Shown one piece after another: positions 9,734-52,165 of a DNA stretch of 59,427 nucleotides; within the stretch, counting starts at the first letter, position 1, and each line of letters starts with the position of its first letter. Position numbers and translations under genes: made by a program. The notes beneath the pieces were generated by a model. It had not been told where the DNA came from. It did no database searches and worked only from the letters and a program-made list of their open reading frames with translations. This DNA comes from an uncultured Marinicella sp. (GTDB lineage: Bacteria; Pseudomonadota; Gammaproteobacteria; Xanthomonadales; Marinicellaceae), in contig CALDFB010000276.1 in the NCBI GenBank assembly GCA_937942365.1, positions 1 to 59,427 on the forward strand, in the 5' to 3' direction.

Positions 9734-11929
9734 TCAATCAAGCTCAAAGCCATTTTGAAAGATTAAGTCATTCTCCCAAATCACAAAACCATTGCCTGGA
9801 AAACCCACATACAGTTTTCCTGGAATCACTGGGTCAGCTTCCATGACTCTGGCCACATCATAGACTTGTTCAGGGTGCTGGCCTATTTTTTGCCAAGTAA
9901 CGCCCTCATCAGCAGACAGCCAATAACCAAATTCACCATCAACTCGACCTTGAATATAAACAGCGGGGTAACCACCTAACGTTAAGGGCGGACCAACAGC
10001 GGCGTTTAAAATTTCGCTGGTGTTGGTTAATGTGGTCCAACTGAGACCAGCATCTGTAGATCGCTTTAAGGGCTGCATCACATTGATATCTGATTCAGCA
10101 TTATGTGCATACCATAAATGCCCTGCTTGGCCTGGGGTACTGACTAATTTGGCATGGAAACCGTAAAAGTCTTGTAAAGCCGTTCTTTCGCTCCATGTTT
10201 CTCCACCGTTTTCGCTGACATAAATACTGCCATTTTGCCAATTGTAGATGTAAAAAGTATTGGGTAAAACCCGGTCAGCAGTGAGGGCCTTTTTATAGGA
10301 AAAGTTGAACTTGTGACAGCAGTCATCACCAAAGTTAGGCAGTGTTGCTGCCGTCCAAGTGTTGCCTAAATCCCTGCTGAAATAAACAGTGCGATTACCA
10401 GAAGGTAGCCAGACCACATTGTTGTTGTCATTGGCTGCAAGAGCAATGTTGCCGAATACGCCATAGTCTTGGTCATTCACAGGGTTGGTAGGAAATGGTG
10501 TCCATGTTGCGCCACCATCACTGCTGTAGCCACTGTAGCGTGTTTGGTTGTCTAAACAACATTCACGGTGGTCTTCAATGATACCCACAATAAAGTCCAG
10601 ATTATTCGGGTGATTATCCATGTCCCAAGCGGAATTGAATCGTTCACTGGGCTGATGAATCAAAGGATAGTTCTCTTCATCTTGATGCAAAAATACTGGT
10701 CTGTCCCAATGCATGGTGACTTGTTGGCCCTGGCCATTAACCACCAGATCATTGCTGACCAGGTGCTCTTGTTTCAATGACTGTTCTTCCCAGATCATGT
10801 TTTGGTTATTGACCCCATCCACCAACCAAGTTCCAACTCCGTCACTGATCCACAGCTGGTCTGGATTGATCGGATCAAACTCAGCTTCACCAATGACAAA
10901 CCATTCTCCTTGTGACCACTCTAGCCAAGGAATGTTATTGGCTATGCGAGTGCGTGTTGGGTAAAACCAGGTGGGTGAGGCATTCGAAGCATTGGTGGTC
11001 AGTGCAGTTTCAGTGAAACCAAAGGATAAGGTCATCACCCTTTCAGTGTTTTGTGGATCAACGGCCACATTAAAGTAAGTGGTGCCATTGTTTTGTAGGC
11101 TTTGCCAGGTGTTGTCACGAAAGACCATGATACCAAGAGTTTGGTTCAAGAAATCATAGCCAACAGTATAAACTTGGCCAGTGGCATTGATCTCGGCGTC
11201 TAAAAACACTGGACCAGAAAAGCCTAAATCGGTTAGCTGCCAAGTATTACCGGCATCGGTTGATTCGAACATCCCCTCACCATCAACTGTGACCAGAACG
11301 CGGCTGGTTTTACCCGCAATAACGATGCTGCTTGGGTCGAATAAAACCTGTCGAACGCCACGTCCAACTATGCCATTGGGGATATTGGCCACCTGCCCCC
11401 AGGTGATGCCGGCATTGTCACTTTTCCACAAACCATCCTCAATGGTGGCCATATAAACGACATCTTTATTCACAGGATCGACACTTAAACGTTCGCCGGA
11501 AGTTTTGCTGTCATCTTTATTGGCTGGCATGGGCGTACTTGGAAAACTGGTTTTAGTCCAATCATCACCTTGGTTGTCTGAACGATAGATGCCATCGTTG
11601 TAGGCCAGATAAGCTCGATTGGCATCTGAAGGGGCAGAAACGATGCTCAAAACGCCGTCATACTGATTCCAATAAACGTCTGATTCAGGGATGTTATTGG
11701 CGCCTACCACATTCACCCAGTTCATGGTTGTGCGATCCAGTCGATAGGCACTGCCCACATCAACGCGGGTAAAGACAGGGTTTCCCGATGGATGAATACT
11801 CATGCCGGTGGCCCAGCCACCAGCACCTGTCGGTAAAACGCGCCAGGACTCATCCTGGGCTTGTACAGCTGAAGTCAAAGCCAGCAGGGTAAAAATAAGT
11901 CTTTTCAGTGTGGGCTGAATCATAATCAC
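9734..11929 (-). CDS. Secreted BNR/Asp-box propeller protein, GH74 xyloglucanase-like, with C-terminal DLIFQNGFE tag
   Basis: Signal peptide (VQA|Q); GAGGWATG..RVDVGSAYR; GERLSVDP; repeated SxDxGxTW; ends DLIFQNGFELD. Confidence 0.8.
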   Translation of the reverse strand: MIMIQPTLKRLIFTLLALTSAVQAQDESWRVLPTGAGGWATGMSIHPSGNPVFTRVDVGSAYRLDRTTMNWVNVVGANNIPESDVYWNQYDGVLSIVSAPSDANRAYLAYNDGIYRSDNQGDDWTKTSFPSTPMPANKDDSKTSGERLSVDPVNKDVVYMATIEDGLWKSDNAGITWGQVANIPNGIVGRGVRQVLFDPSSIVIAGKTSRVLVTVDGEGMFESTDAGNTWQLTDLGFSGPVFLDAEINATGQVYTVGYDFLNQTLGIMVFRDNTWQSLQNNGTTYFNVAVDPQNTERVMTLSFGFTETALTTNASNASPTWFYPTRTRIANNIPWLEWSQGEWFVIGEAEFDPINPDQLWISDGVGTWLVDGVNNQNMIWEEQSLKQEHLVSNDLVVNGQGQQVTMHWDRPVFLHQDEENYPLIHQPSERFNSAWDMDNHPNNLDFIVGIIEDHRECCLDNQTRYSGYSSDGGATWTPFPTNPVNDQDYGVFGNIALAANDNNNVVWLPSGNRTVYFSRDLGNTWTAATLPNFGDDCCHKFNFSYKKALTADRVLPNTFYIYNWQNGSIYVSENGGETWSERTALQDFYGFHAKLVSTPGQAGHLWYAHNAESDINVMQPLKRSTDAGLSWTTLTNTSEILNAAVGPPLTLGGYPAVYIQGRVDGEFGYWLSADEGVTWQKIGQHPEQVYDVARVMEADPVIPGKLYVGFPGNGFVIWENDLIFQNGFELD

Positions 11930-12176
11930 CTCTCTTAGTCAGGTTGTTTTTATCGTTAGCTAAAAATTTTAGCCAACGATCATGCCGATAATTAAGCACC
12001 CGATCACAGATTAACCCTTACTTTGTGAAATTTAGGTTAAAACCCAGGTGTTCTGAGGGATAGAGGCATTTATTAAAATAGATAGATAAAGGCTCAAAAG
12101 GGGTGAGTTAAAACTTAGGGTTTATAATTCATATCAGAATTATGTAAAACATCGAACAAACAAGCGGAGCCAAGCC

Positions 12177-12545: not shown

Positions 12546-12546
12546 A

Positions 12547-20471: not shown

Positions 20472-20747
20472 GGAATAAATCTGTTTTTTTGAGCGGTTTA
20501 AGCCTAAATTTGATATTTGAATCATTCTGGTCTTAATTTAGAGGTTTTGCTCAAGAACTATTTCTAAGTTTAACTGCCTGATGTCACTCAAAACCATTGA
20601 GAAAAATGGTGTCTAAAACAACTGTAATCTTATTTTGAGCCATCACCCCTTGGCGAGGATCTAGAACGCTCAGTTATTTCAGTGTGAGTGATCTATTATG
20701 AATTATATAAGGGGTTCTGCGAGCTTGAACTGGATGTTTTTTAATCT

Positions 20748-20893
20748 AAAACGGATACCCACAAGGGGCACACCCTACAGGGTTATACCGTATTTTGTTA
20801 TTTACAGCCCGTTAAAAATATAAACCTGGTATATGTGAGGATGAATGGTAAAAAGAACTGTTGTAGGGTGTACCTCTTGTGGGTACCCGTTTT
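20748..20893. repeat. Inverted pair of GTAG-type REP sequences (REPIN-like)
   Basis: acggatacccacaaggggcacaccctaca at ~20751-20779 and tgtagggtgtacctcttgtgggtacccgt at 20862-20890. Confidence 0.75.
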
Positions 20894-20926
20894 GTATCTT
20901 ATAAGTATTGAAACATCAGGAGTTCC

Positions 20927-23496: not shown

Positions 23497-25716
23497 ATGC
23501 AACGCAAGAAAATCGTACTTTCCATCACACTGGCATTGGGCTTGGCCCAAAATCAAGTTCATGCACAATTTGACTTTGATCCTGTTATTCAGCTTGGGGA
23601 TATAAATGGCACCATTGGCTTTCGTCTGGACGGTGTGGCAGCAGGAGACTTCTCTGGCATCGCCGTGAGTACTGCAGGTGATGTCAACGGTGATGGTTTG
23701 GATGACCTCATTATCGGGGCTGATAGAGCCGACCCGAATGGCAGTTCTTCCGGCAGCAGCTATGTGGTGTTTGGTAACAATACAGGGTTTAACGCAACGA
23801 TCAATCTGAGCACGCTGGATGGTAGCAACGGCTTCCGACTCGATGGCGCAGCAGAAAACGACTTCTCTGGCCGAGCAGTGAGCGCAGCAGGTGATGTCAA
23901 TGGCGATGGCTTTGATGACCTGCTGATCGGCGCTTTTGGGGCTGGTTCAATTTCTGGTAGCAGCTATGTGGTGTTTGGTAACAATACAGGATTTAACGCA
24001 ACGATGAACCTGAGCACGCTGGATGGCAGCAATGGTTTTCGACTCGATGGCACAGCAGAATATGATGCTTCCGGACGCGCAGTAAGCACAGCTGGTGATG
24101 TCAATGGCGATGGCTTTGATGATCTGCTGATCGGGGCTTATGGTGCCGACCTAAATGACGGTTTATCAGGAAGCAGTTACCTGGTATTTGGGACGAATAC
24201 TGGATTTAATGCTACGCTGGACTTGAGCACACTGGATGGCAGCAACGGTTTTCGACTCGATGGCGCAGCAGAAAACGACTTCTCTGGCAGAACAGTGAGC
24301 ACGGCAGGTGATGTCAATGGCGATGGCTTTGATGACCTGCTGATCGGGGCTGTAGGGGCTACCCCGAATGGTACTTATTCCGGCAGCAGCTACGTGGTGT
24401 TTGGTAAGAGTACTCCGTTTACCGCCACACAGAACCTGAGTACGCTGGATGGCACCAACGGCTTCCGCCTCGATGGCGCGGCATCTGACCGATCCGGCGA
24501 TGCAGTGAGCGCAGCTGGCGATGTCAATGGCGATGGCTTTGATGACCTGCTGATCGGGGCCGTAGGGGCTGGTTCATTTTCTGGTAGAAGCTACGTGGTA
24601 TTTGGTAAGAGCGCCCCTTTTACCGCCACAATGAACCTGAGCACGTTGGATGGCACCAACGGCTTCCGCCTCGATGGCGCGGCATCTGACCGATCCGGCG
24701 ATGCAGTGAGCGCAGCTGGCGATGTCAATGGCGATGGTTTTGATGACCTACTGATCGGGGCTATTGGGGCTGAGCCTAATGGCTCTAGTTCCGGTAGCAG
24801 TTATGTGGTATTTGGTAAAGACACTGGGTTTAATGCCACGCAGAACTTGAACACGCTCGATGGCACCAACGGCTTCCGCCTGGATGGCGCAGCAAACGGT
24901 GATTTTTCTGGCGGTTCAGTTAGCACAGCTGGCGATATCAATGGTGATGGCTTTGATGATCTGCTGTTTGGGGCTTATGGTGCCGACCCCAATGGTTCTT
25001 TTTCCGGCAGCAGTTATGTGTTTTTTGGCCGTACTGCTGGTATTCCATTGATAAATTTCGACCAGGAACTGTTTAATTTTGGCGATACCATACTGGGCAC
25101 CAGCAGCGATGTAGCCACCGTCACATTAAGCAACCCGGGAACCGGTAACGCCTCGATCGTTACCATTAACTTGGCTGACCCTGCATTCTCAATCACCGGT
25201 GGCAGCTGCGGCACGACACCCTTCCTCATCCAATTCGGTGAATCTTGCACACTGGATCTACAATTCACACCACAAGCAGTAGGTAGCGCTTTGATAAAAA
25301 CAGTGTTTGAAGGTAACTCCTTCACCACCCCCGACTCAATCACTCTGGCAGGCAATGGCGTGCTACCGCCAATGGTCTCTTTACAACCTGATCCATTGGT
25401 CTTTATGGACACCCCAGTTGGAAACAGCAACATCGAAACACTTACTGTCGAAAACATCGGCCAAAATAGCACCTTGGAACCCGGAATGGTTTCCATCCTA
25501 GGCACCGATGCGGCTGATTTCAGCATAGCCATGAATAACTGCATGGGCGCACAACTAGAACTCAATCAATCCTGTGACATCGAGGTGAGTTTTACCCCAA
25601 GTGCAGCTGGCACCCGAGAGGCCGTGTTACAACTTCAGTCCAATGCACCAAGCAGCCCCGACTTTATCGAACTGACAGGTAGCAGCGATGTGATTTTTAA
25701 ATCAGGGTTTGAGTGA
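23497..25716 (+). CDS. Secreted 7x FG-GAP propeller + two ASH/Ig-like (choice-of-anchor D-like) domains + DVIFKSGFE
   Basis: Signal peptide; seven AGD[VI]NGDGxDDL repeats; two Ig-like units (NxG...F...C...CxxxxxFTP). Confidence 0.92.
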   Translation: MQRKKIVLSITLALGLAQNQVHAQFDFDPVIQLGDINGTIGFRLDGVAAGDFSGIAVSTAGDVNGDGLDDLIIGADRADPNGSSSGSSYVVFGNNTGFNATINLSTLDGSNGFRLDGAAENDFSGRAVSAAGDVNGDGFDDLLIGAFGAGSISGSSYVVFGNNTGFNATMNLSTLDGSNGFRLDGTAEYDASGRAVSTAGDVNGDGFDDLLIGAYGADLNDGLSGSSYLVFGTNTGFNATLDLSTLDGSNGFRLDGAAENDFSGRTVSTAGDVNGDGFDDLLIGAVGATPNGTYSGSSYVVFGKSTPFTATQNLSTLDGTNGFRLDGAASDRSGDAVSAAGDVNGDGFDDLLIGAVGAGSFSGRSYVVFGKSAPFTATMNLSTLDGTNGFRLDGAASDRSGDAVSAAGDVNGDGFDDLLIGAIGAEPNGSSSGSSYVVFGKDTGFNATQNLNTLDGTNGFRLDGAANGDFSGGSVSTAGDINGDGFDDLLFGAYGADPNGSFSGSSYVFFGRTAGIPLINFDQELFNFGDTILGTSSDVATVTLSNPGTGNASIVTINLADPAFSITGGSCGTTPFLIQFGESCTLDLQFTPQAVGSALIKTVFEGNSFTTPDSITLAGNGVLPPMVSLQPDPLVFMDTPVGNSNIETLTVENIGQNSTLEPGMVSILGTDAADFSIAMNNCMGAQLELNQSCDIEVSFTPSAAGTREAVLQLQSNAPSSPDFIELTGSSDVIFKSGFE

Positions 25717-25787: not shown

Positions 25788-28025
25788 ATGCAACGCAAGA
25801 AAATCGCACTTTCCATCACACTGGCATTGGGCTTGGCCCAAAACCCCGTTCATGCGCAATTTGACTCTGTGATTCAACTGAGTGATTTAGATGGCACCAC
25901 TGGTTTCCGCCTGGATGGTGTTGCGACATTCGACCAGTCAGGCAGCGCAGTGAGTTCTGCTGGTGATATCAATGGCGATGGCTTTGATGACCTCATTATC
26001 GGTGCTAATAATGCTGACCCGAACGGCGTTAGTTCCGGCAGCAGCTATGTGGTGTTTGGTAAGGGTACTCCGTTTACCGCCTCACTGAATCTGAGCATGC
26101 TGGATGGAACCAACGGATTCCGGCTTGATGGCGAAGCAGCGAATGACTTCTCAGGTTTCGCAGTGAGCGCAGCTGGTGATATCAATGGCGATGGTTTTGA
26201 TGACCTTATTATCAGTACACCTTTCACTGACCCGAACGGCCTTCGCTCCGGCAGCAGCTACGTGGTGTTTGGCACCAATCTCCCGTTTAATCCCACAATT
26301 AACTTGGGCACGCTGAATGGCAGCAATGGTTTTCGACTCGATGGCGCAACAGAATATGATGATTCCGGACGCGCAGTGAGCACAGCTGGTGATATCAATG
26401 GCGATGGCTTTGATGACCTCATAATTGGGGCTGATGGTGCCAACCCGAACGGCGTTAGTTCCGGCAGCAGCTACGTGGTGTTTGGTAAAAGTACTCCGTT
26501 TACCGCTACGCAGAACTTAAGCACGCTGGATGGAACCAACGGCTTTCGCCTTGATGGCGAAGCGGCGAACGACTTTTCGGGCAGAGATGTGAGTAATGCT
26601 GGTGATGTCAATGGTGATGGCATCGACGATCTCATTATCGGGGCTTTTGGTGCCAGCCCGAACGTCAGTGGTTCTGGCAGCAGCTACGTGGTATTTGGTA
26701 AGAGTACTCCGTTTTCTGCCACACAAAGTTTGAGTACACTGAATGGCAACAACGGCTTCCGACTTGATGGCGAAGCGACCTATGATCTTTCCGGCCGCAG
26801 CGTGAGCGCTGCTGGTGATCTCAATGGTGATGGCTTTGATGACCTCATTATTGGGGCTGATGGTGCTGACCCGAACGGCCTTCGTTCCGGCAGCAGCTAT
26901 GTGGTGTTTGGCAAGAGTACTCCATTTACCACCACGCAGAACTTAAGCATGCTGGATGGCAGCAACGGCTTTCGTCTTGATGGTGAAGCGACGGACGACT
27001 ATTCGGGCAGAAATGTGAGTGCAGCTGGCGATGTCAATGGCGATGGCTTTGATGATCTCATTATCGGGGCTGATGGTGCTGACCCAAATGGCAGTTTATC
27101 TGGAAGCAGTTACGTGGTATTTGGGACGAATACTGGATTAAATGCTACACTGAATCTGGGCACGCTGGATGGAACCAACGGCTTCCGACTTGATGGCGAA
27201 GCGGCCCTTGACTCTTCCGGCCGCGAAGTGAGCACAGCAGGTGATGTTAATGGCGATGGCATTGATGACCTCATTATCGGTGCACCTTTTGCTGACCCGA
27301 ACGTCAGTAATTCCGGCAGCAGCTACGTGGTGTTTGGTCGACTCACTGGATTTCCATTGGTCAATTTCGATGTGAACCTGATTGATTTTGGTGATACAAC
27401 ACTAGGGACCAGCAGCAATACAAGCACCGTAACCTTAAGTAATCCCGGTACCGGTCTGGTCACCATTGATGGCATTAACCTGGCAGATCCTGCATTCGCC
27501 ATCACCGGTGGCGACTGTGGCACGCCACCATTCTTCATCGGCGTCAACGAAACCTGCACACTTGACCTGCAGTTCACACCGCAAGTAATTGGTACCACGG
27601 TAACCAAGGCCATTGTTGAGAGTAATTCAGCCTCAAGCCCCGACTCATTCTTCCTGATTGGCAACGGCGTGCTGCCACCAATGGTCTCTTTACAACCCGA
27701 TCCGCTGGTCTTTATGGACACCCCAGTTGGAAACAGCAGCACCGAAACACTCACGGTCGAAAACATCGGCCCAAGTAGCACCTTGGAACCCGGAATGGTT
27801 TCTATCCTAGGCGCTGATGCGGCTGATTTCAGCATCACCACAAACAACTGCCTCGGCGCACAACTAGAACTCAACCAGTCTTGTGACATTGAAATCAGTT
27901 TTACACCCAGCGTAGCCGGCACCCGCGCAGCGATGATACAGCTGGAGTCCAATGCACCCAGCAGCCCCGACTTTGTTGAACTGCTGGGCAGCAGTGATGT
28001 GATTTTTAAGTCTGGGTTTGAGTGA
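25788..28025 (+). CDS. Secreted 7x FG-GAP propeller + two ASH/Ig-like domains + DVIFKSGFE (paralog of 23497)
   Basis: Same architecture; near-identical signal peptide and last Ig domain. Confidence 0.92.
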   Translation: MQRKKIALSITLALGLAQNPVHAQFDSVIQLSDLDGTTGFRLDGVATFDQSGSAVSSAGDINGDGFDDLIIGANNADPNGVSSGSSYVVFGKGTPFTASLNLSMLDGTNGFRLDGEAANDFSGFAVSAAGDINGDGFDDLIISTPFTDPNGLRSGSSYVVFGTNLPFNPTINLGTLNGSNGFRLDGATEYDDSGRAVSTAGDINGDGFDDLIIGADGANPNGVSSGSSYVVFGKSTPFTATQNLSTLDGTNGFRLDGEAANDFSGRDVSNAGDVNGDGIDDLIIGAFGASPNVSGSGSSYVVFGKSTPFSATQSLSTLNGNNGFRLDGEATYDLSGRSVSAAGDLNGDGFDDLIIGADGADPNGLRSGSSYVVFGKSTPFTTTQNLSMLDGSNGFRLDGEATDDYSGRNVSAAGDVNGDGFDDLIIGADGADPNGSLSGSSYVVFGTNTGLNATLNLGTLDGTNGFRLDGEAALDSSGREVSTAGDVNGDGIDDLIIGAPFADPNVSNSGSSYVVFGRLTGFPLVNFDVNLIDFGDTTLGTSSNTSTVTLSNPGTGLVTIDGINLADPAFAITGGDCGTPPFFIGVNETCTLDLQFTPQVIGTTVTKAIVESNSASSPDSFFLIGNGVLPPMVSLQPDPLVFMDTPVGNSSTETLTVENIGPSSTLEPGMVSILGADAADFSITTNNCLGAQLELNQSCDIEISFTPSVAGTRAAMIQLESNAPSSPDFVELLGSSDVIFKSGFE

Positions 28026-28187: not shown

Positions 28188-29780
28188 ATGCAACGAAAAA
28201 AGATCACTTTAGCGGTTTCAATGGCCTTGTGCCTGACACACATGCACAGTGCCAATGCTCAATTTGAACCCACCATTGAACTGGCCGATCTTAATGGCTT
28301 AAATGGCATCAGATTCAATGGCGTCGCTGAGTTCGATAACACCGGTGTTTCAGTCTCGTCAGCTGGTGACATCAACGGTGATGGCATAGATGATCTGATC
28401 ATCGGCGCCAATGATGCTGATCCAAATGGGACTGATCGTGCTGGCAGCAGTTATGTGGTGTTTGGTACATCCATTGGTTTACCCAGTCCCTTTGAGTTAT
28501 CAACTTTAAATGGCAGCAATGGTTTCACCATTAACGGGGTTGCTGATGTAGACTTGTCAGGTTTTTCAGTCGATGGGGCTGGAGACATCAATGGCGATGG
28601 CTTTGATGACTTAATCATTGGTGCGCTGTATGCCGATGTGAATGGTGCCAAGGATGCTGGCAGCGCCTATGTGGTGTTTGGTTCAAATACTGGTTTACCC
28701 AACCCGTTGAATTTATCCGACCTTGATGGCAACAACGGCTTTGCGCTTCATGGGATTGGCATGGGTGACCGAACCGGAAGAGCTGTCAGTGCTGCAGGTG
28801 ATATCAACGGTGATGGCATCGATGACTTGGCTATTTCTGCAGATCGTGCCAGCCCAGGTGGCAGCAACAGTGCTGGCAGCGCCTATGTGGTATTTGGCTC
28901 GAACAGTGACTTACCCAACCCTTTTAATCTATCCAGTCTCAACGGTAACAATGGCTTCACCATCAATGGCTCTTCATCTTTTGACCAGGTAGGCACTTCC
29001 GTCAGCACAGCAGGGGACATCAATGGCGATGGCATAGATGATCTGATCATCGGCGCTGATAGCGCAGGCACAACAGGTAGCACATATGTGGTGTTTGGCT
29101 CCGATAATGGTATACCCAATCCTTTCAGTTTATCTGCCATCAACGGTACCAACGGGTTTTCCATCAATGGCGAGGCCAGTGGCGATTTGTTAGGTTTTTC
29201 AGTCAGTGCTGCGGGCGATGTTAACCACGATGGCATAGATGATTTAATTGTAGGTGCCCGTGGTGCTGATCCGAGTGGTAACAGTTTTGCTGGCAGCAGC
29301 TACGTCATTTATGGGTCTGATTCTGGTATTCCTCACCCTTTTGATTTATCAACCCTTAATGGTACCAATGGATTTGCTCTCAACGGTATAGCAGAAAATG
29401 ATTACTCTGGCATTTCAGTCAGTGCAACTGGCGACATCAATGGTGATGGTATGGATGATCTGATCATCGGAGCCAGCGGTGCAGACCCTAATGGCTCAAA
29501 TAGTGCCGGCAGTGCTTATGTGGTATTTGGTTCTGACGCGGGCATTTCACACCCTTTTGATTTATCGGCCCTCAATGGAGTTAACGGTTTTACTGTCAAT
29601 GGTGTTTCGAATTCAGACACCACCGGTTATTCAGTCAGCGAAGCGGGTGATTTCAACGGTGATGGTTTGAACGACATATTGATAGGTGCTCGCAGGGCAG
29701 ATCCTGATGGTAACAGCAGTGCTGGCAGCAGCTATGTGGTGTTTGGTAATGATGTGATTTTTAAAAGTGGGTTTGAGTAA
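28188..29780 (+). CDS. Secreted 7x FG-GAP propeller + DVIFKSGFE
   Basis: Seven FG-GAP repeats; no Ig stalk. Confidence 0.92.
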   Translation: MQRKKITLAVSMALCLTHMHSANAQFEPTIELADLNGLNGIRFNGVAEFDNTGVSVSSAGDINGDGIDDLIIGANDADPNGTDRAGSSYVVFGTSIGLPSPFELSTLNGSNGFTINGVADVDLSGFSVDGAGDINGDGFDDLIIGALYADVNGAKDAGSAYVVFGSNTGLPNPLNLSDLDGNNGFALHGIGMGDRTGRAVSAAGDINGDGIDDLAISADRASPGGSNSAGSAYVVFGSNSDLPNPFNLSSLNGNNGFTINGSSSFDQVGTSVSTAGDINGDGIDDLIIGADSAGTTGSTYVVFGSDNGIPNPFSLSAINGTNGFSINGEASGDLLGFSVSAAGDVNHDGIDDLIVGARGADPSGNSFAGSSYVIYGSDSGIPHPFDLSTLNGTNGFALNGIAENDYSGISVSATGDINGDGMDDLIIGASGADPNGSNSAGSAYVVFGSDAGISHPFDLSALNGVNGFTVNGVSNSDTTGYSVSEAGDFNGDGLNDILIGARRADPDGNSSAGSSYVVFGNDVIFKSGFE

Positions 29781-29921
29781 TTAGGTTTTACTTAACTAAT
29801 ATCTCAGCTATTTTGGTTTTTTTAAATCCATATTTTTAACATTAACGAATAACAAACAATTTATTTGTTATCATTTCATCGCTGTGTTTTTAGCTTCATT
29901 AAATCAATAAGGAAATCAATC

Positions 29922-31499
29922 ATGCGATTCAAAAAAAATAAAATAGTTATGGGTGTTACTCTTGCACTAAGCTTTTCCCAAAACAATGCTTTTGCTCAAT
30001 TTGATCCTGTAATCCAACTCAATGAGTTAAATGGTACAAACGGTTTTCGTATAGATGGAGAATCTTTGGCAGATCGCTCTGGTTTTTCAGTCAGTACTGC
30101 AGGAGATTTTAATGGTGATGGAGTCGATGACCTCATTATTGGAGCTTATCAAGCTGACCCTGGTGGTACTGACTCCGGTAGCAGCTATGTTATTTTTGGC
30201 ACAAATGTCGGGGTGGGTTCTTCATTTAGTCTAAGTTCTTTAGATGGCTCTAACGGTTTTCGCCTCGATGGTGCGACAAAGGGTGAACGATCTGGTCTAG
30301 CGGTGAGCGATGTTGGCGATGTTAATGGCGATGGTATTGGTGATATAATTATTGGAGCACCTCGTGCCAATCCAAATATGAGTTATTCAGGCAGTAGTTA
30401 CGTGGTGTTTGGTTCTGACGTTTTATTCGATGCCACATTGGGCCTCAGTTCACTTGATGGCTCCAATGGCTTTCGTCTTGACGGCGAAACTTTAGGTGAT
30501 TTATCAGGCAGCGCAGTAAGTGCAGCTGGAGATATCAATGGTGATGGAATTGATGATATAGTCATCGGTGCATACAACGCTGATCTCAATGGCGCTTTTT
30601 CAGGAAGCAGCTATGTGGTTTTTGGCAGCAGTGGATTCAATGCCACACTGAATCTCAGTACATTAGATGGCTCTAATGGCTTTCGCCTAGATGGCATGGC
30701 ATTTGAGTCTTCTGGCGGTGCTGTAAGCAGTGCTGGTGATGTTAATGGCGATGGCATTGACGACCTTATCATCGGTGCTCAGTATGCGGACAATAATGGG
30801 AGCTCATCTGGTAGTACTTACCTGGTATTTGGTACCAAAACAGAATTTAGTGCTACACTGGATCTCAGTACTTTGGATGGTGTCAACGGCTTTAGGATAG
30901 ATGGTACCTCGGCCAGAGACTTACTTGGCAGGTCAATAAGCCGTGCTGGTGACGTCAATGATGATGGCATTGATGATATTATCATTGGGGCGCCTCGTGC
31001 CGATTATAGTGGTGTTGATTCTGGCAGCACTTATGTGGTGTTTGGTTCAAATGCTGGATTTGATGCCACGTTTAATGTCGAATCCCTTAATGGCATCAAC
31101 GGTTTTCGGATTGATGGTACTACTGCTGATGAACGATCCGGTACTGCAGTAAACAAAGCGGGGGATGTCAACGGTGATGGCATTGATGATATTATCATTG
31201 GGGCACCTCTTGCCGACGTTAATGACGACGATTCTGGCAGTAGCTACTTAGTATTTGGTCGCAGCACCGCTTTTGAAGCCAGTTTAAATTTAAGTAGTCT
31301 GAATGGATCAAATGGCTTCCGACTCGATGATTCAGGGGTAGGTAATTTTTCTGGGTTTGCAGTAAGTTCTGCTGGTGATTTTAATGGTGATGGCATGAGT
31401 GACGTCATTATTGGAGCCTACAATGCTAACAACAGTGTTGGCAGTAGCTATGTGGTTTATGGAAAAACTGACGTTATATTTATGGACAGCTTTGAATAA
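29922..31499 (+). CDS. Secreted 7x FG-GAP propeller + DVIFMDSFE (start corrected to MRFKKNK)
   Basis: aagga RBS before ATG 29922; seven FG-GAP repeats. Confidence 0.92.
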   Translation: MRFKKNKIVMGVTLALSFSQNNAFAQFDPVIQLNELNGTNGFRIDGESLADRSGFSVSTAGDFNGDGVDDLIIGAYQADPGGTDSGSSYVIFGTNVGVGSSFSLSSLDGSNGFRLDGATKGERSGLAVSDVGDVNGDGIGDIIIGAPRANPNMSYSGSSYVVFGSDVLFDATLGLSSLDGSNGFRLDGETLGDLSGSAVSAAGDINGDGIDDIVIGAYNADLNGAFSGSSYVVFGSSGFNATLNLSTLDGSNGFRLDGMAFESSGGAVSSAGDVNGDGIDDLIIGAQYADNNGSSSGSTYLVFGTKTEFSATLDLSTLDGVNGFRIDGTSARDLLGRSISRAGDVNDDGIDDIIIGAPRADYSGVDSGSTYVVFGSNAGFDATFNVESLNGINGFRIDGTTADERSGTAVNKAGDVNGDGIDDIIIGAPLADVNDDDSGSSYLVFGRSTAFEASLNLSSLNGSNGFRLDDSGVGNFSGFAVSSAGDFNGDGMSDVIIGAYNANNSVGSSYVVYGKTDVIFMDSFE

Positions 31500-32853: not shown

Positions 32854-34455
32854 ATGAACCGCAAGAAAATCGTTGTTTCTATTACCTTGGTATTGAGTCT
32901 AGCGCAACAACCTGCATTGGCGCAATTTCCATCACCTTTAGAGCTGAGCACTTTAAATGGTAACAATGGCTTCACCATCAACGGTGTGAATTTAAATGAC
33001 CGCTCTGGTACCTCAGTCAGCTCAGCAGGTGATATTAATGGCGATGGCATCGATGACCTTATTATTGGTGCTCCGTTGGCTGATCCTAATGGAGCGGGTG
33101 ATGCTGGCAGCAGCTATGTGGTCTTTGGTTCTGATAATCCACTGCCCAACCCTTTTAATTTAAGCACCATCAATGGCAGCAATGGCTTCTCTATCAACGG
33201 CGAGGCTGCTGGTGACTCCTCTGGCTTTTCTGTCAACTCAGCTGGTGATATTAATGGCGATGGCATCGATGACCTTATTATTGGTGCGCCATATGCAGAC
33301 CCAAATAATAATTTGTCTGGCAGTAGCTATGTAGTGTTTGGGCGTGATTCAGGTTTTACATCCGCACTAAATCTTTCTGGTTTAAACGGATCCAATGGTT
33401 TTGCGATTAATGGTGTGGCAGCAGCAGACCTCTCAGGTACTTCAGTGAGTTCAGCTGGTGATTTTAACGGTGATGGCATAGATGATTTGATCATTGGTGC
33501 AATATACGGTGAACCTAAAGGTGATGATTATGCTGGTGGCAGTTACGTAGTCTTCGGACGTGATACGGGTTTTACATCCACATTAGAGCTGTCTAGTTTA
33601 AATGGTTCCAACGGTTTCTCCATTAGCGGTGTGGCTACAGATGACCAGTCTGGCTTCTCTGTTAGTTCAGCGGGAGATGTTAATGGTGATGGTATAGATG
33701 ATGTGATCATTGGTGCGCCATATGCAGACCCTAATAGTAACGATGAAGCTGGTAGTAGCTATGTGGTATTTGGTTCTGACAACCCACTGCCCAACCCTTT
33801 TAATTTAAGCACCATCAATGGCAGCAATGGTTTCTCTATCAACGGTGTGTTTGCAGGTGACAACTCTGGCTTTTCTGTCAGTGCAGCTGGTGATGTTAAT
33901 GGCGATGGCATCGATGATCTGATTATTGGTGCTAATCGCGCAGACCCCAATGGCAACCAAAATGCTGGCAGCAGTTATGTGGTATTTGGTTCTGATAGCT
34001 CATTACCGAACCCTTTTAATTTAAGTACCATCAATGGCACCAATGGCTTCACCATCAACGGTGTGATAAGTGGAGAAAACTCTGGATTTTCTGTCAGCGC
34101 AGCGGGCGATATCAATGGCGATGGCATAGATGATTTGATTATTGGCGCCCCAAATGCAAATTTTTCTGTTAATTTAGTCGGTGCGAGTGATGTACTGTTA
34201 GGTTCAAAAAACCCCATACCCCATCCATTTAATATCAGCACAATTAATGGCCTAAATGGCTTCAGTATGTTTGGTGTGGCAAATGGCGACAGGACTGGTG
34301 CAGCAGTCAGTGCTGCAGGTGATGTCAACGGTGATGGAGTTGATGACTTGATTATCGGTGCTCCTTTTGCTGACCCTAATGGCGTAGGTGTTGCTGGCAG
34401 CAGCTATGTGGTATTCGGCGAAAGAGACCTGATTTTTAAGGATGGGTTTGAATAG
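32854..34455 (+). CDS. Secreted 7x FG-GAP propeller + DLIFKDGFE
   Basis: Signal peptide (ALA|QF); seven repeats, several with literal IIGAP. Confidence 0.92.
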   Translation: MNRKKIVVSITLVLSLAQQPALAQFPSPLELSTLNGNNGFTINGVNLNDRSGTSVSSAGDINGDGIDDLIIGAPLADPNGAGDAGSSYVVFGSDNPLPNPFNLSTINGSNGFSINGEAAGDSSGFSVNSAGDINGDGIDDLIIGAPYADPNNNLSGSSYVVFGRDSGFTSALNLSGLNGSNGFAINGVAAADLSGTSVSSAGDFNGDGIDDLIIGAIYGEPKGDDYAGGSYVVFGRDTGFTSTLELSSLNGSNGFSISGVATDDQSGFSVSSAGDVNGDGIDDVIIGAPYADPNSNDEAGSSYVVFGSDNPLPNPFNLSTINGSNGFSINGVFAGDNSGFSVSAAGDVNGDGIDDLIIGANRADPNGNQNAGSSYVVFGSDSSLPNPFNLSTINGTNGFTINGVISGENSGFSVSAAGDINGDGIDDLIIGAPNANFSVNLVGASDVLLGSKNPIPHPFNISTINGLNGFSMFGVANGDRTGAAVSAAGDVNGDGVDDLIIGAPFADPNGVGVAGSSYVVFGERDLIFKDGFE

Positions 34456-38387: not shown

Positions 38388-40946
38388 TTAGCTACTTTCT
38401 AGGGTGACAAATACATTGCTGAAATCGCACTTTTTTAAATCGCTTTTATGAATTACAAAATACAAGTCTCCAGCATCTCCCCAGCTCATATCACCTGTAG
38501 AAGTTACTTTTAAAAGTGTCATCCAATCTTGAGGTTGTCCTTTTTTCTTTAAGGATGCTTGTAGTTCTGGCATTTCGTTTTGGGTAAAGCCATACGCATT
38601 TACCGCATAGTCATGAGGATACGCCCTAATTAAAGGCCCCTCAAAATCGTCGTATATAGCATCAAGTAGTTGCTCATTATCTAGTAAAGTTTCAGCTTCG
38701 CCTTCGAATAAATGTGTATTTACTTTTCTGCAATACATATCAGGACAGCTACTCATTTTTTCAGCATTTACCTTATGGCCTTCATACTCATTACCTGACA
38801 TTTCTGAATAGTCATCTTCTTCAAATTTAAATCTTTTACCAGACGCTAAGGTTTTAGTGTCTTCTACATATAGTATTTTGCATGAGGTATCACTTTCATC
38901 ATAAACACTATGAATGGTTTCTAAAAAGAAAAACAGCATGCCTTTTCTTGGTAAATAGCCTTGTAAATGTGCTATCGCTGTACAGTTAATTTGCCCTATA
39001 AACTCGTGAATATAGTCTTTCTTCTCGTCATGCCAATTGTCACCAAATCTTGGGTACGGCATATCTTCTGGTAAATCTGGCATACCGCCAAAACGGTGAT
39101 TTCCTATAGTTGTGTAATCTTCTTTCTCAACATGCTGAAAACTGATGCCTTTTTTAATGAGCGAAAGTAGGGATGTCGAATGTTCTTGTAATTTACTTTT
39201 AGTAACTATGGTTTTTATTTCGGGAAGTAAGTCGCAGTCATGTTTGACATAAAATACCTTGTCTTCCCAAGAAACTAAACCTTTACCATCTGCGCCTTTG
39301 TACTCATAATCTAGAAGGCGTAACTTATCTTCCATAGCCATTTCCAATGTTTTTATTGTATTGAAGATGCCAGGAAGCGTTTCTAATGGGTTATTTTCAA
39401 TAGCAATTGCTGTTAGCTTGGGTTGTTTTGCCAGAGATTCTGGTAAGGTTATAAATTGATTGTTATTTAAACTGATCGTTGTAACTGCTGGTAGGTTTAT
39501 TTTTTCTGGAATGGCAGATAATTGGTTTGTATCTAGCGATAAATAGTCTAATTTGGGCAACTGCCAAACCTCGTCTGGTATGGCTTCTAATTCGCAGTTA
39601 TAAAAAGATAAACGTTCTAACTGCTTTAGCTTCACGATACTTTCAGGAAGCGTTTTTAATGCTGCTTTCTGTATGTAAATGCTTTTTAATTTGCTGAACG
39701 TACCTATTTCTGCTGGTATTTCATTGAAAGGTAATTTCTCCTTGTTTCCATGATTATTAACAGTGAGCTTCTCTAAATTTTTAAAATTAAGAAAGGTTTC
39801 AGGAAATTTTGAAAAACTGGGATTGGTAAGTGATAGAAACCGAACATCTTTTGGGTTTGTGGTGGTTGTTTCTTCCATGGAACTAAAATGATAATCTTTC
39901 CACTCTAAAGGAGTCGTATCAAACTTCTTCGCTATTTGTATAGGAAACGCTTTATCATGATACGTTTTGGTCATTTCACCATTAACCAAAAACCAGCCAT
40001 CTTTAAGACATACATTACCATTAAAATCTAGACGATAATCAAATCCTTCTATATCTGAACGTAAGAAAAATGGTGCTTCCGTTTTACCTTCCTTGAATTG
40101 AAATTCTCCTGTAGGAACACCATTTTTGTGAATACCTTGAAAGGGGATTGAAATTTCTACTTCTCCATTGTCTTCATAATCATCTAAAACCGCTGCTTTT
40201 ATTGCTTTCTTAGGTGTTTTTGCTTTTGCCTTAATGGTTACATGTAGTTTGTTTGAGTAGTCACTTATTATCATTTGGCAATCAACTAAAATAAAATCAA
40301 AATCACCTACTGTAAAAAATGCATTATCCTTATCAGGAATTGCAATAGATTTAAATGTTTTAGTTTCTTCGATACTGTAATTATCATCTACATCATCACT
40401 GTAATCATCACCCATATCACCAAGCATATCATCTAGTCTTTTTTCATAGGCTTGCGCATCGGCTTGACGTTTTTTCGCATCTGCAAGCACTGTTACAGAA
40501 TTCAGGCTATGCTTGGTCCAATCTTCTAAAAACCCATCTTTAGTAACCTCATGTATACTTATAAATGAGATAAAATCTACCTCATCTATTAAAATGATGG
40601 CAAACAAATAATGTAAATTACATTGTTTATCTAATACTTTGGTATTTACTTTGGCCGACAGTGTTAAGGCTTTACAGCCATTGATAGTAATTTCTTCAAC
40701 AGCGCTTATATCCTTCTGATTTTCTTCTGTAAGGTAATAATTGATCATTTTTTCTGAGAACGTGGTACCTTTTATTTCGTCACTATTAAAGTATTTTATG
40801 TCCTCTATACTAAGCCTTACAGAATGTGGGTGTATGGTAAATGGAATTTGACTGCTTCTGGAAAGTGCTATTATTTCTGAACTGGTATACTCATCAAAAG
40901 TATTTGGTACTTCAAAACTAAAAAGTGGGTGTTCTATTTTTTTCAT
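38388..40946 (-). CDS. Leucine-rich repeat + YwqG/DUF1963 domain protein
   Basis: LRRs (LPESIVKLKQLERLSF, LSLDTNQL, LNNNQF); RFGGMPDLP, FIGQIN, LPRKGMLFFF, WGDAGDLYFVI. Confidence 0.85.
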   Translation of the reverse strand: MKKIEHPLFSFEVPNTFDEYTSSEIIALSRSSQIPFTIHPHSVRLSIEDIKYFNSDEIKGTTFSEKMINYYLTEENQKDISAVEEITINGCKALTLSAKVNTKVLDKQCNLHYLFAIILIDEVDFISFISIHEVTKDGFLEDWTKHSLNSVTVLADAKKRQADAQAYEKRLDDMLGDMGDDYSDDVDDNYSIEETKTFKSIAIPDKDNAFFTVGDFDFILVDCQMIISDYSNKLHVTIKAKAKTPKKAIKAAVLDDYEDNGEVEISIPFQGIHKNGVPTGEFQFKEGKTEAPFFLRSDIEGFDYRLDFNGNVCLKDGWFLVNGEMTKTYHDKAFPIQIAKKFDTTPLEWKDYHFSSMEETTTTNPKDVRFLSLTNPSFSKFPETFLNFKNLEKLTVNNHGNKEKLPFNEIPAEIGTFSKLKSIYIQKAALKTLPESIVKLKQLERLSFYNCELEAIPDEVWQLPKLDYLSLDTNQLSAIPEKINLPAVTTISLNNNQFITLPESLAKQPKLTAIAIENNPLETLPGIFNTIKTLEMAMEDKLRLLDYEYKGADGKGLVSWEDKVFYVKHDCDLLPEIKTIVTKSKLQEHSTSLLSLIKKGISFQHVEKEDYTTIGNHRFGGMPDLPEDMPYPRFGDNWHDEKKDYIHEFIGQINCTAIAHLQGYLPRKGMLFFFLETIHSVYDESDTSCKILYVEDTKTLASGKRFKFEEDDYSEMSGNEYEGHKVNAEKMSSCPDMYCRKVNTHLFEGEAETLLDNEQLLDAIYDDFEGPLIRAYPHDYAVNAYGFTQNEMPELQASLKKKGQPQDWMTLLKVTSTGDMSWGDAGDLYFVIHKSDLKKCDFSNVFVTLESS

Positions 40947-49426: not shown

Positions 49427-50065
49427 ATGAAAATACCACATTTAGACCCTGAGTTCGCTCGAAGTCGAATGCGACAATGGCCACAAGCCTTTCGTATCAG
49501 CTTATTATTTTTGGTGGTAATTTGGGCGCTGTTTTTACTGGCACAAGTGCTGCCATTGACTCAGTTCGGTACCAAGCCTCGAAGTCTTGAGGGTCTGTTA
49601 GGTATTGTTACCATGCCTTTCATTCATAGTGGTTGGCCGCACTTGATTGACAACAGTTTACCCATGTTTTTAGCCATGGTGGCTTTGTTTGGTAACTACC
49701 CCAAGGTGGCAGTTAAAACAGTGGTGTTCAGCATTTTACTTTCAGGCACTTTGGTTTGGTTGTTTGGTCGAGAGGTCAATCATATCGGCTCCAGTGGTTT
49801 GTTCTATGCTTTGCTCACTTATTTGTTTGTCAGTGGATTTTTGAAAAAGGATTTACAGTCGATTGGTATTTCAGTGGCCATTGCATTCATGTATGGCTAT
49901 ATGATTTGGGGCATCTTTCCAGGTCGAGCAGGTATTTCATGGGAGTCACATATGTTCGGTTTTTTATCGGGTGTGTTTTTGGCCTACAACACCAAAGACA
50001 TTGATCGGCCCGTACTCAAAGATTGGCGCTTGGATGATGATCTTGATGATTATTACGGGGATTAA
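49427..50065 (+). CDS. Rhomboid family intramembrane serine protease
   Basis: HSGWPHLIDN; HIGSSG (GxSG); SWESHMFG. Confidence 0.92.
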   Translation: MKIPHLDPEFARSRMRQWPQAFRISLLFLVVIWALFLLAQVLPLTQFGTKPRSLEGLLGIVTMPFIHSGWPHLIDNSLPMFLAMVALFGNYPKVAVKTVVFSILLSGTLVWLFGREVNHIGSSGLFYALLTYLFVSGFLKKDLQSIGISVAIAFMYGYMIWGIFPGRAGISWESHMFGFLSGVFLAYNTKDIDRPVLKDWRLDDDLDDYYGD

Positions 50066-50125
50066 TCAATGAATGTCATTGGCTGATTTAATTCATCGGC
50101 TGCCTAAGGTTCAATGATTTAAAAC

Positions 50126-50169
50126 TGTGAAGAACATAACACAATCTGTGCATTTTTATTTGTTATACT
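50126..50169 (+). promoter_or_regulatory. CRP-like box plus extended -10
   Basis: TGTGA-agaaca-TAACA (one mismatch) at 50126-50141; TGtTATACT at 50161-50169. Confidence 0.45.
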
Positions 50170-50224
50170 AAAGATTTAATACAGGCCTTTTTTTTAAAAA
50201 TTCTTTTTTTAGGAAGCTATATTC

Positions 50225-52165
50225 ATGCGTTTTACTGTGTTTTATTTGTTTTTATTTTTGAATTTTATTCGCCCAAGTCATGCCTCCGCTCAATCAAATT
50301 TAGGAGATTTGGTTTTTTTACACGGATTCGAACAACCTCGGTCCGTTTGTTCTTATTCCGATTTGGAAAAGGCAGGAATTGGTCAAGATTTATTGCTGGT
50401 TTGTGATATTGACCTTAAAGGTCAAACGCTCAACTTAGCGCCAAATTTAACCGTCAGAAGCTATGGTTCGATTATTTTTGGAGGCACAGTTGTTTTAGAC
50501 CAAACATTGATAGAAGGGTTGATTTTAAACCATGATTTAACCATCGAAGGTGAAGGTCGTTTAATAGATTTAACTTACGTTTTTGACCCTTCAAAATGGC
50601 CCAACATCATTCAAGGAGAGGTGACTGCAGATCAAGCACATGGAAACAATCAAATGCTTGAAGATTTGTTTTTTCTGATTCATGAGTTATATGGCCGTGT
50701 TTTCAAAATAGATATCTTTGATGCTTATTTTTTGCCACGCATAACGCCACCAGCAAACAATGCATATCGGCCCAGTATTGAGGCAGTTAATTTACCCAGT
50801 AACTTTCATCTGATGATGTCAGACAACACCAATATGAGGGTTTACCCCACTTCAGACTCTACACGAGAAGAAGAGTTGGAAGGTGGAGGTATTTTTGCTA
50901 TCCGTGATGTAGACAATGTCATCATATCGGGTGGGACTTTACATGGCGATCGTGATACGCGTTATTATTCACCAGATGACAATGGTTTGGAAGGGTCGCA
51001 TTTATTGATTATTGAAGCAGGTCGTAATGTGATCATTGATTCAGTTCGAATGGTTGATGGTTCTAAAGGTGGGATAGATATTCATTCGCTCAGTTTTGCT
51101 CATCTGCCAACCTATAATCCAACTATAAGTGTTGAAATAAGAAATTGTGATTTTGAAAACTTAAGAAGGATGTCTATTGCTCTAACTGACGGTGCAGATA
51201 TTCGAGTGTTAAATAACAGATTCATTAATACCGGTCAGCCATCATCTCATTCCGATGGTGGTGAAGTTGGATCTGCTATCAATGTTGAGCCAGTTAGACA
51301 AAGAGATAAGGACGGTAACTTAATTGAGTTACAACGCGTTGATGGTTTTACCATTTCAGGAAATACGGAAAGTGGTTCGCGTAATGCTTTTGTTGTGGTT
51401 ACATCAGGTTATCGAGGTGATATCAACAATAACTTATCTGAAAGAAGAATTGGGTTTCGTTATGCTTCTGAAACCATCATCAGTAATAATGTATTACGCG
51501 GTGACTTCAATGGCGAAGGAGTTGCGATCAGTGCAGCAGGTTTTGAGAGTGACTTAGTTTTTGGCAACTCAATCATTGATAATGACATTCAAGGCTATGG
51601 GTTAGGCATCAGTATTTCAACGAGAGGTATCCGTGTTGAGGGTAATGAGATCAGGACTTCTGTGGTAGGTATGCAAATCTCCAAAACCTTAGGTGCTGAA
51701 ATTGTTGGAAATAGCATCATTGAAAGTAGTCGAGGAATCAGATTGACTCGCACTTACGCAGATGATATTGAAATTTTTAACAACGATATATTAGACACAA
51801 CTAATGTGCATATCGAATTAATTAACCTGAATGCCGATGGTGTTGTTTCAGAGCCAATGGTAAATATATACAACAATTTTTTAACAGGGGATCAGCCAAT
51901 TGATATGACGGGTGCGCATTCGGTCAATTTGCTGAGCAATACCTTAGAAGGTAGTATCAGATCAGTAGATAATGTTTCGGTCGATGTGTTGCAAAATACA
52001 GTTGTTCCCTTAAACCGTCATGGTATTGAACTTCGAGGATTTCATCAAGGTGTGAATGTTTTAAATAATCGTATTTTTGAACCTCAATCTTCTACCCGCC
52101 TCTGCATGTTCACGGATTTAGACCCAGGTGGGGTGATTGAAATTAGCAATAACACATGTGAATAA
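50225..52165 (+). CDS. Secreted right-handed parallel beta-helix protein with N-terminal DLVFLHGFE tag
   Basis: Signal peptide (ASA|Q); repeated IxNNxI/IxGNxI strands; GGTLHGDR. Confidence 0.85.
   Translation: MRFTVFYLFLFLNFIRPSHASAQSNLGDLVFLHGFEQPRSVCSYSDLEKAGIGQDLLLVCDIDLKGQTLNLAPNLTVRSYGSIIFGGTVVLDQTLIEGLILNHDLTIEGEGRLIDLTYVFDPSKWPNIIQGEVTADQAHGNNQMLEDLFFLIHELYGRVFKIDIFDAYFLPRITPPANNAYRPSIEAVNLPSNFHLMMSDNTNMRVYPTSDSTREEELEGGGIFAIRDVDNVIISGGTLHGDRDTRYYSPDDNGLEGSHLLIIEAGRNVIIDSVRMVDGSKGGIDIHSLSFAHLPTYNPTISVEIRNCDFENLRRMSIALTDGADIRVLNNRFINTGQPSSHSDGGEVGSAINVEPVRQRDKDGNLIELQRVDGFTISGNTESGSRNAFVVVTSGYRGDINNNLSERRIGFRYASETIISNNVLRGDFNGEGVAISAAGFESDLVFGNSIIDNDIQGYGLGISISTRGIRVEGNEIRTSVVGMQISKTLGAEIVGNSIIESSRGIRLTRTYADDIEIFNNDILDTTNVHIELINLNADGVVSEPMVNIYNNFLTGDQPIDMTGAHSVNLLSNTLEGSIRSVDNVSVDVLQNTVVPLNRHGIELRGFHQGVNVLNNRIFEPQSSTRLCMFTDLDPGGVIEISNNTCE

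Follow-up and report, generated by a model that had tools for sequence, protein, structure and literature searches.

The question raised by this locus is what reads a short peptide motif that recurs on otherwise different secreted proteins. The window, a 59,427-nucleotide stretch of DNA from an uncultured Marinicella sp. of the Xanthomonadales (contig CALDFB010000276.1 of assembly GCA_937942365.1), encodes seven exported proteins that carry a nine-residue tag of the form D-[LV]-[IV]-F-x-x-[GS]-F-E. A sequence-only reading of the window had proposed a dedicated recognition signal for export or surface attachment, for example by beta-strand addition to a receptor. A candidate receptor has now been found in a small exported protein encoded outside the window, termed the adaptor, and the predicted contact between the two is a strand addition. 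In the preferred reading, which is given a probability of roughly 0.8, the tag is the first strand of a split jelly-roll domain, plugs into a conserved groove of the adaptor, and tethers its cargo at the cell surface.

Distribution of the Tag

Translation of the window places all seven motifs in frame where they had been reported, and the start of each of the seven proteins resembles a signal peptide when judged by eye. Profile matches bear out the passengers described, which are a BNR/Vps10-like propeller, FG-GAP propellers with or without two choice-of-anchor-D immunoglobulin (Ig) domains, and a beta-helix. The domains are indeed different, but with five FG-GAP paralogs among the seven proteins the number of independent passenger types in the window comes to three.

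The genome (G000; 3.39 Mb in 342 contigs, 91% complete) contains 109 matches to the strict pattern: 93 C-terminal, three N-terminal, seven internal, and six in short frames. A position-specific scoring matrix (PSSM) finds 119 copies within 25 residues of a stop codon, four at N-termini, and eight internally, some of the weakest of which are chance matches. Among 2229 non-overlapping open reading frames (ORFs) of at least 150 residues, 91 carry the strict pattern within 12 residues of the stop, compared with a mean of 0.05 in 20 shuffles of the ORF set and none in the reversed proteins; elsewhere in the same ORFs it occurs 10 times, compared with 1.1 (shuffled) and 3 (reversed). The 116 proteins with a PSSM score of at least 14 form 65 BLAST groups, of which 56 have a single member.

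The consensus (n = 93) is D90-x-I89-F93-x-[N46 D36]-G75-F93-[E79 D14], in which the Phe positions are fixed while the flanks vary freely. The stop codon follows the tag immediately in 51 of the 93 strict C-terminal copies, and the remaining 42 have extra residues behind them, 11 at most. This leaves no transmembrane helix or basic tail, as had been noted, and no CTERM model matches the window cargoes. Enrichment among signal-peptide proteins, set beforehand as the test of a proteome scan, is clear: by a home-made signal-peptide rule, 88 of 102 tagged complete ORFs pass, compared with 523 of 1960 untagged ones (odds ratio 17). About 120 mostly exported proteins of this genome carry the tag. No Pfam or NCBIfam model was found for it, and none matches it on the tagged window proteins. 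A homolog search with a small tagged protein of contig C66 (C numbers denote contigs of this genome) returned only three proteins.

The tag is also separate from the passenger fold in the one passenger modelled with AlphaFold2, that of the 32854 gene, in keeping with the modularity ascribed to it. The propeller is complete by residue 496, and residues 502-509 form a coil outside it with a confidence (pLDDT) below 50. Among 120 homologs of the FG-GAP propeller (P numbers here and below denote homologous proteins), 55 continue into RTX repeats, 11 end with the strict tag, one (P0214) ends with a type IX secretion system (T9SS) domain, and one (P0281, by eye) ends with a PEP-CTERM-like tail. Because the same propeller ends elsewhere in RTX, T9SS or PEP-CTERM-like tails, the tag occupies the slot of export or anchoring signals. 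A subtilase of contig C338 (10229-13516, plus strand; locus L067:1230-4517, L numbers denoting loci) has a C-terminal beta domain with two adjacent first-strand-like segments, IFNYTFD then DIIFGHGFE, which gives the impression of a tag insertion where another jelly-roll domain opens.

At the DNA level, a pattern for the tag is found in 152 of the 251 surveyed genomes of the order, the richest of which has 142 copies. The reversed control matches six genomes once each. Within families the distribution is two-state: nine genomes of family f12 hold 25-142 copies, one holds a single copy, and 28 hold none, and family f2 has one tagged genome among 38. In 193 gammaproteobacteria of other orders, ten genomes have one match and none has more, so a single match is regarded as background.

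The Adaptor and Its Missing Strand

The adaptor ranks eighth of the 2396 ORFs of this genome in codon bias and is one of two unannotated exported proteins near the top. It has no Pfam or NCBIfam match, and a PDB sequence search found no related solved chain (best E 0.025). An ESM Atlas search returned unnamed clusters and, in fifth place, a Cip1-like lead, 46% of whose members carry PF21340. By BLAST, the adaptor is 28% identical to P0016 over 220 residues (E 2e-16). Tag-like segments, DVIFRDGFE in P0016 and DLIFEDGFD in P0017, directly precede the domain that these distant homologs have in common with the adaptor.

A hidden Markov model (HMM) of this domain, searched against 1.84 billion representative sequences, gave 2258 matches, the best 150 of which were analysed; 24 N-terminally partial copies were excluded from the comparison of domain starts. 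Applied to these best 150 matches, a PSSM built from this genome's tags only reaches a score of 12 or higher where the domain opens in 108 of the 143 copies embedded in larger proteins (median 19.6), whereas all 75 stand-alone copies fall short of it (maximum 0.3). The strict pattern D-x-I-F-[AS]-D-[GS]-F-E-S-G-[ND]-L-S-A-W opens 107 of the same 143. Stand-alone copies instead consist of a signal peptide, usually a Cys, and then the sequence straight from the conserved Trp. Since intact copies open with the tag and stand-alone ones lack it, the tag corresponds to the strand that opens the domain, and the protein that stands alone to the remainder.

The AlphaFold2 model of the adaptor (pLDDT 92, pTM 0.89) has a ConA/PL7-like jelly-roll fold, with neighbours taken from Foldseek alone (TM 0.5-0.6, 7-15% identity). 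By sequence the adaptor does not look like a PL7 alginate lyase: no family profile matches (Pfam, NCBIfam, PDB-sequence), and the conserved residues fall in the predicted tag groove. In a quick tree of 94 rows sampled from the matches, three stand-alone lineages are set apart from the intact copies; the tree is unrooted, and the direction of the split is not readable from it. The third of these lineages (P0130, P0148, P0155, P0163) has no Cys cap, and a cluster within it bears the labels Vicinamibacterales and Candidatus Binatia, so that the split may extend beyond Pseudomonadota. Contig C66 (27347-34498, minus strand) encodes a 2368-residue exported protein that ends in an intact adaptor-type domain with a degenerate first strand, HVFADSVE.

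Predicted Tag-Adaptor Complex

The complex of the adaptor with the last 31 residues of the 32854 protein was predicted in three runs alongside three controls. The interface score ipSAE is 0.86 in the three runs, compared with 0.06 in the best control. Of solved pairs, 116 of 157 clear the mark applied to this score, as do 2 of 215 mismatched ones; these counts are rough for alignments of the kind made here. At least 92% of contacts are common to the runs, and the partner pLDDT is at least 52. Confident contacts are limited to partner residues 22-31 (RDLIFKDGFE), of which residues 24-27 lie antiparallel to adaptor residues 209-213.

The groove predicted in this way is the conserved part of the adaptor. 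Mean conservation of the 28 contacted positions is 0.80 versus 0.45 for the rest in alignment A1 (30 rows) and 0.60 versus 0.33 in alignment A4 (24 rows), both built from matches in the same surveyed genomes. Contacted positions include eight of the 12 invariant residues (W10, C33, D54, E60, D207, S211, R212, and R213 in folded-fragment numbering). Judging from the model and the domain alignment, the tag very probably binds the adaptor by strand completion.

Co-occurrence of Tag, Adaptor and Secretion Genes

The profile set comprises the 251 genomes of the order, with a good-assembly subset of 155 genomes in at most 100 contigs. A search with the single adaptor sequence matched 40 of the 251 genomes and missed four families; two HMM rounds raised this number to 121 and then to 144, and the family nearly always occurs once per genome. 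Presence of at least two tags and presence of the adaptor coincide in 124 genomes and are both lacking in 91, while 16 have the tag only and 20 the adaptor only. Profiling motif-rich against motif-free genomes had been suggested as a way to find partner machinery, and in the good assemblies the adaptor family does track the tag: it is matched in all 67 genomes with at least two tags and absent from 74 of the 88 others. The same holds within families, with the adaptor in 9/9 tag-rich versus 0/29 genomes of f12, only in the one tagged genome of the 38 in f2, and in 10/12 tagged versus 3/26 untagged genomes of f8.

This genome has two type II secretion clusters, one Xps-type (C35) and one split Xcp/Lsp-type (C124, C67, C24), and the GspC of the latter has a PDZ domain. 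The Xcp/Lsp-type secretin is present in 113 of 118 genomes with at least five tags (in f12, 9/9 versus 0/29) and matches the adaptor in presence or absence in 221 of the 251 genomes (both present in 130, both absent in 91). It tracks the tag about equally well, and so the profile separates secretin from adaptor only in f8, where the secretin occurs in 2 of 12 tagged genomes. Five f8 genomes that were read contain genuine terminal tags, and their secretins are of the Xps and PilQ types only, apart from one weak match of unassigned type. Xcp/Lsp-type type II secretion was therefore rejected as the tag reader, its strong co-occurrence failing in f8, and kept as the likely route.

An S-layer-like protein of contig C143 was also considered as the direct reader. 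It is matched by no Pfam or NCBIfam family model. It is presumably an NpdA-like S-layer protein, a label for which its codon bias and a taxon list in PMC10765051 are grounds. Of the 251 genomes, 180 have a member of its family, among them 140 of the 144 that are adaptor-positive and 36 of the 38 in f8, most of which carry no tags; the family thus forms a superset of the tagged genomes, and the protein was rejected as the direct reader. The C143 gene adjoins genes for a peptidyl-prolyl isomerase and a polysaccharide-export permease, and paralogs lie on C39 (three), C36, and C187. The paralog at C39:8366-9352 (minus strand) ends with a tag variant, DLVFRNAFD, directly before the stop.

Possible Anchoring of the Adaptor

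One adaptor lineage ends in a dockerin-like pair of loops and is found in families f4, f6, f7, f8, f9, and f11, part of f1, and the tagged f2 genome. In 17 of the 19 loci of the dockerin type, the next gene downstream encodes an exported protein whose C-terminal tail is hydrophobic, and the other two loci are cut by contig ends. These gene arrangements suggest that in the dockerin-type lineage the order runs from cargo to adaptor to scaffold to membrane.

The adaptor gene of this genome lies among sulfotransferase and glycosyltransferase genes, and a glycosyltransferase cluster stands beside the adaptor in 42 of 84 loci. No dockerin pattern was found among this genome's ORFs, no dockerin match on the window cargoes, and, by phmmer, no homolog of the downstream candidate scaffold protein in this genome. 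As a guess, the dockerin-less adaptor might be held by a surface glycan or by the S-layer-like protein.

In PMC7691419, the Wenzhouxiangella AB-CW3 gene that follows DUF481-rplM-rpsI-tRNA encodes a 308-residue signal-peptide protein with an abundance of 0.27-0.80, and rpsI and rplM have abundances of 0.02-0.18; the next gene encodes an expressed IPTL-CTERM protein. According to the same source, the medium showed no protease activity and proteolytic activity was cell-bound. The position after DUF481-rplM-rpsI-tRNA is that of the adaptor in loci L102 and L121, and the AB-CW3 protein is assigned by gene order only.

In Dokdonella, Rudaea, and Tahibacter, the operon that holds the adaptor gene also contains a second apparent split pair (L132-L189; for example L169:6657-7169 and L177:3350-4759, both plus strand; genomes G065, G097, G118). 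It consists of an exported protein of about 170 residues that ends with PVxLxxFx[VI][ED] at the stop and an exported protein of about 460 residues that ends in an FN3-like domain, which by its sequence seems to be without its first strand. Both members are present in 34 loci. The PVxLxxFx[VI][ED] tail with its stop occurs 10, 4, and 1 times in three f12 genomes, and was found 0 times in G104, G024, and this genome. The PVxLxxFx[VI][ED] strand is presumably one that normally opens an FN3-like domain before T9SS tails.

Proposed Mechanism and Alternatives

Cargo and adaptor both have Sec-type signal peptides. The tag would supply the strand with which the intact domain opens in other bacteria and for which, in the alignment, the stand-alone adaptor has a short, usually Cys-capped start. 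It is predicted to pair antiparallel with the last strand of the adaptor (F-E-S-R-R), non-covalently and without processing, so that it could stand at the C-terminus, at the N-terminus, or in linkers. Given the co-occurrence, the complex would likely cross the outer membrane through a type II secretion system. In several families, operon structure and domain matches point to binding of the adaptor's dockerin-like tail to the cohesin-like domain of a co-encoded IPTL-CTERM-tailed protein.

Several observations weigh against this mechanism. The 16 genomes with at least two tags and no adaptor match are all drafts of 110-820 contigs; of five inspected, G217 has an adaptor gene cut by a contig end and nothing was found in the other four, and a DNA pattern for the adaptor's end motif gave two matches in the five, neither of them the motif. 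Conversely, 20 genomes with an adaptor match carry fewer than two tags. Most adaptor matches were not inspected singly, and at least one of them, in G252, is an intact domain and no adaptor; the profile counts also treat related genomes as independent although kin are not. At two or more tags, the secretin is present in 128 of 140 genomes and the adaptor in 124. The dockerin and cohesin matches behind the proposed scaffold are weak. Of eight adaptors scanned, six match Dockerin_1 (three above the cut-off); of 18 downstream proteins, seven match Cohesin (two above) and six match IPTL-CTERM (four above). The adaptor of this genome, from the dockerin-less lineage, has no dockerin, membrane segment, or visible anchor. 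The complex prediction covers one tag only, and the predictor may succeed by knowing the intact domain from sequence databases, in which case the model favours the split-domain reading and says nothing of affinity in the cell.

The adaptor could use the same strand-into-groove binding as an export escort, binding cargo in the periplasm and handing it over to type II secretion, with the cargo released outside. Such an escort fits the agreement between adaptor and Xcp/Lsp-type secretin, the service of about 120 cargoes by a single gene, and the unanchored adaptor type of this genome. It is nevertheless unlikely, as the second adaptor lineage, with its dockerin-like tail and adjoining membrane-tailed proteins, fits retention, and 14 adaptor-positive genomes have no Xcp/Lsp-type secretin; nor do the five genomes checked in f8. 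The cell-bound proteolytic activity of AB-CW3 (PMC7691419) likewise stands against release. Surface tethering by the adaptor seems likelier than escort.

A good deal less probable still is a direct reading of the tag, with the jelly-roll protein as a bystander, either by the Xcp/Lsp-type machine (for example through the PDZ domain of GspC) or by the S-layer-like protein. The secretin is nearly constant in genomes with at least five tags, and the S-layer-like family is nearly constant in adaptor-positive genomes. PDZ ligands require a free C-terminus, however, and tags often have 1-18 residues behind them or stand N-terminally or in linkers; with 42 of 93 strict tags extended, a PDZ-type free-carboxylate rule does not apply. 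The secretin is also missing from most tagged f8 genomes, of which the five read have genuine terminal tags, while the S-layer-like family is present in nearly all f8 genomes, most of them untagged. Direct reading leaves the identity of the tag with the first strand of the adaptor domain unexplained. The least probable alternative, with very little in its favour, is a tag without a partner, whether a structural strand or metal-binding end of the passenger or the leftover of a truncated domain. Similar strands do open other jelly-roll domains, and the tag-like segment of the C338 subtilase starts a C-terminal beta domain. Yet the tag is carried by 65 unrelated sequence groups, is a low-confidence coil on a propeller most of whose homologs have no tag, keeps its Phe positions while its flanks vary, and in good assemblies is multi-copy only together with the adaptor.

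Relation to Known Systems

To our knowledge, known bacterial sorting tags are either cut by proteases or folded domains. In donor-strand complementation, as in chaperone-usher and type V pili, a strand of one protein completes the beta-sandwich of another non-covalently. The adaptor resembles this in that, by homology and prediction, an incomplete beta-sandwich is completed by a partner's strand. Pilins, however, both donate and accept and so polymerise, whereas here cargoes only donate and one adaptor only accepts; the self-donor feature of pilins is missing, as 0/75 stand-alone adaptors in the best 150 of 2258 matches carry the strand. Pilins are also Ig-like or transthyretin-like, whereas the adaptor is a ConA-like jelly roll and a single acceptor for about 120 unrelated proteins; an usher or chaperone was not found, though no search aimed at one was made. 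SpyTag/SpyCatcher is an engineered, covalent system in which a domain is split into a short strand and a catcher; the present pair shares the split but is natural and predicted to be non-covalent.

As in the cellulosome (PF00963, PF00404), many enzymes would dock on a surface scaffold by a small common module, and one adaptor lineage has a dockerin-like tail and adjoins a membrane-tailed protein that is in part cohesin-like. Unlike in the cellulosome, the cargo module is a nine-residue strand and not a folded Ca-binding dockerin, the dockerin-like part being on the adaptor in relatives; the hosts are Gram-negative Xanthomonadales, the candidate scaffolds have at most one cohesin match each, and the adaptor of this genome is dockerin-less. 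The T9SS C-terminal domain (TIGR04183) can take the place of the tag after this FG-GAP propeller (P0214) but comprises about 70 residues, is folded and cleaved, and belongs to a Bacteroidota-type machine; no TIGR04183 or PF18962 match was found on the tagged window proteins. The tripartite CTERM signals (LPXTG, PEP-CTERM, GlyGly-CTERM, MYXO-CTERM, and IPTL-CTERM; accessible part of 10.1101/2023.06.07.544157) likewise combine a many-to-one terminal signature with a partner gene, a patchy distribution, and the same slot on common passenger domains. The tag differs in its lack of a transmembrane helix or basic tail and in its variable position, and its partner is a predicted binding protein, not a membrane protease, with no cleavage predicted. 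N-terminal and linker copies argue against cleavage by an intramembrane protease.

A full-text literature search that included motif strings, and whose coverage largely leaves out subscription journals, found no description of the tag system, and the motif is unmentioned in the accessible part of the Haft sorting-signal preprint (10.1101/2023.06.07.544157). Tag and adaptor resemble several known systems but lack defining features of each. On balance, though with more reserve than for the mechanism itself, the system appears to be a plug-and-socket of the Xanthomonadales, in which a nine-residue strand on up to 140 cargoes completes a single adaptor that links them to a surface scaffold, of the dockerin-cohesin-IPTL-CTERM kind in several families. 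It would combine a cellulosome-like enzyme coat on Gram-negative cells with a linear address for type II cargo, and its principle would recur in the Dokdonella-type second pair.

If this is true, a short strand sorts proteins by completing a partner's fold, which would explain cell-bound hydrolases and mark several percent of proteomes as surface proteins. Because both halves are identified, a test would need no more than a peptide, a small protein, and a single knockout in a harmless cultured strain, for which Marinicella litoralis, Dokdonella immobilis, and Tahibacter aquaticus are candidates. Readers of other orphan tags might be sought by the same recipe, namely through a domain that normally opens with the tag. 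If the predicted binding holds, the pair would also provide a natural nine-residue tag and catcher for protein engineering.

Genes of the Window

The tagged genes are collected in Table 1 with the two features outside the window. The seven tags listed by the sequence-only reading are correct, but an eighth copy, the short remnant, had been overlooked; it stands where G017, the closest relative, carries a tagged FG-GAP gene. The N-terminal tag of the 50225 protein directly follows the signal peptide and is a weaker match (PSSM 14.6).

Table 1. Tagged genes of the window, candidate adaptor, and S-layer-like protein (window positions unless a contig is given).
Feature	Position	Strand	Remarks
Tagged cargo, 731-residue exported BNR/Vps10-like propeller protein, end DLIFQNGFELD	9734..11929	minus	Tag DLIFQNGFE 9743-9769, then LD and stop
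29-codon remnant, end LDTIFLNGFE and stop	20584..20673	minus	Flanked by ABC permease gene and groES
Tagged cargo, 739 residues, FG-GAP propeller and two choice-of-anchor-D Ig domains	23497..25716	plus	DVIFKSGFE 25687-25713
Tagged cargo, 745-residue paralog of the 23497 gene product	25788..28025	plus	DVIFKSGFE 27996-28022
Tagged cargo, 530-residue FG-GAP propeller	28188..29780	plus	DVIFKSGFE 29751-29777
Tagged cargo, FG-GAP propeller (ORF 29865-31499, ATG 29922)	29922..31499	plus	DVIFMDSFE 31470-31496
Tagged cargo, 533-residue FG-GAP propeller	32854..34455	plus	DLIFKDGFE 34426-34452
N-terminally tagged cargo, DLVFLHGFE at residues 28-36, then beta-helix	50225..52165	plus	Tag 50306-50332
Candidate reader (adaptor), 246-residue exported protein	G000:C106:3209-3949	plus	Outside window; strong codon bias (rank 8)
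S-layer-like protein, 471 residues, exported, unannotated	C143:2807-4237 (L071)	minus	Codon-bias rank 1 in genome

The gene at 52277-53326 lies on the minus strand, a correction to the earlier account, and its exported product contains a domain of the pattern G-x-W-[YFW]-x-P-x3-G-x-G. Thirteen further proteins of the genome match this pattern, often near the C-terminus, and the domain is possibly a second targeting module. Its barrel-like domain was considered as the tag receptor and rejected, as 0/13 of these proteins are tagged.

A palindromic repeat at about 20700-20920 separates the tag remnant from the ABC permease gene and has many copies in G012 and G017; it is presumably REP-like. Within the FG-GAP gene array, positions 31539-32576 (plus strand) hold a TIGR03032/DUF4915 gene without a signal peptide. 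An 852-residue protein with leucine-rich repeats and DUF1963 is encoded at 38388-40946 (minus strand) next to an unannotated gene of 235 residues, and is apparently foreign to its housekeeping surroundings.

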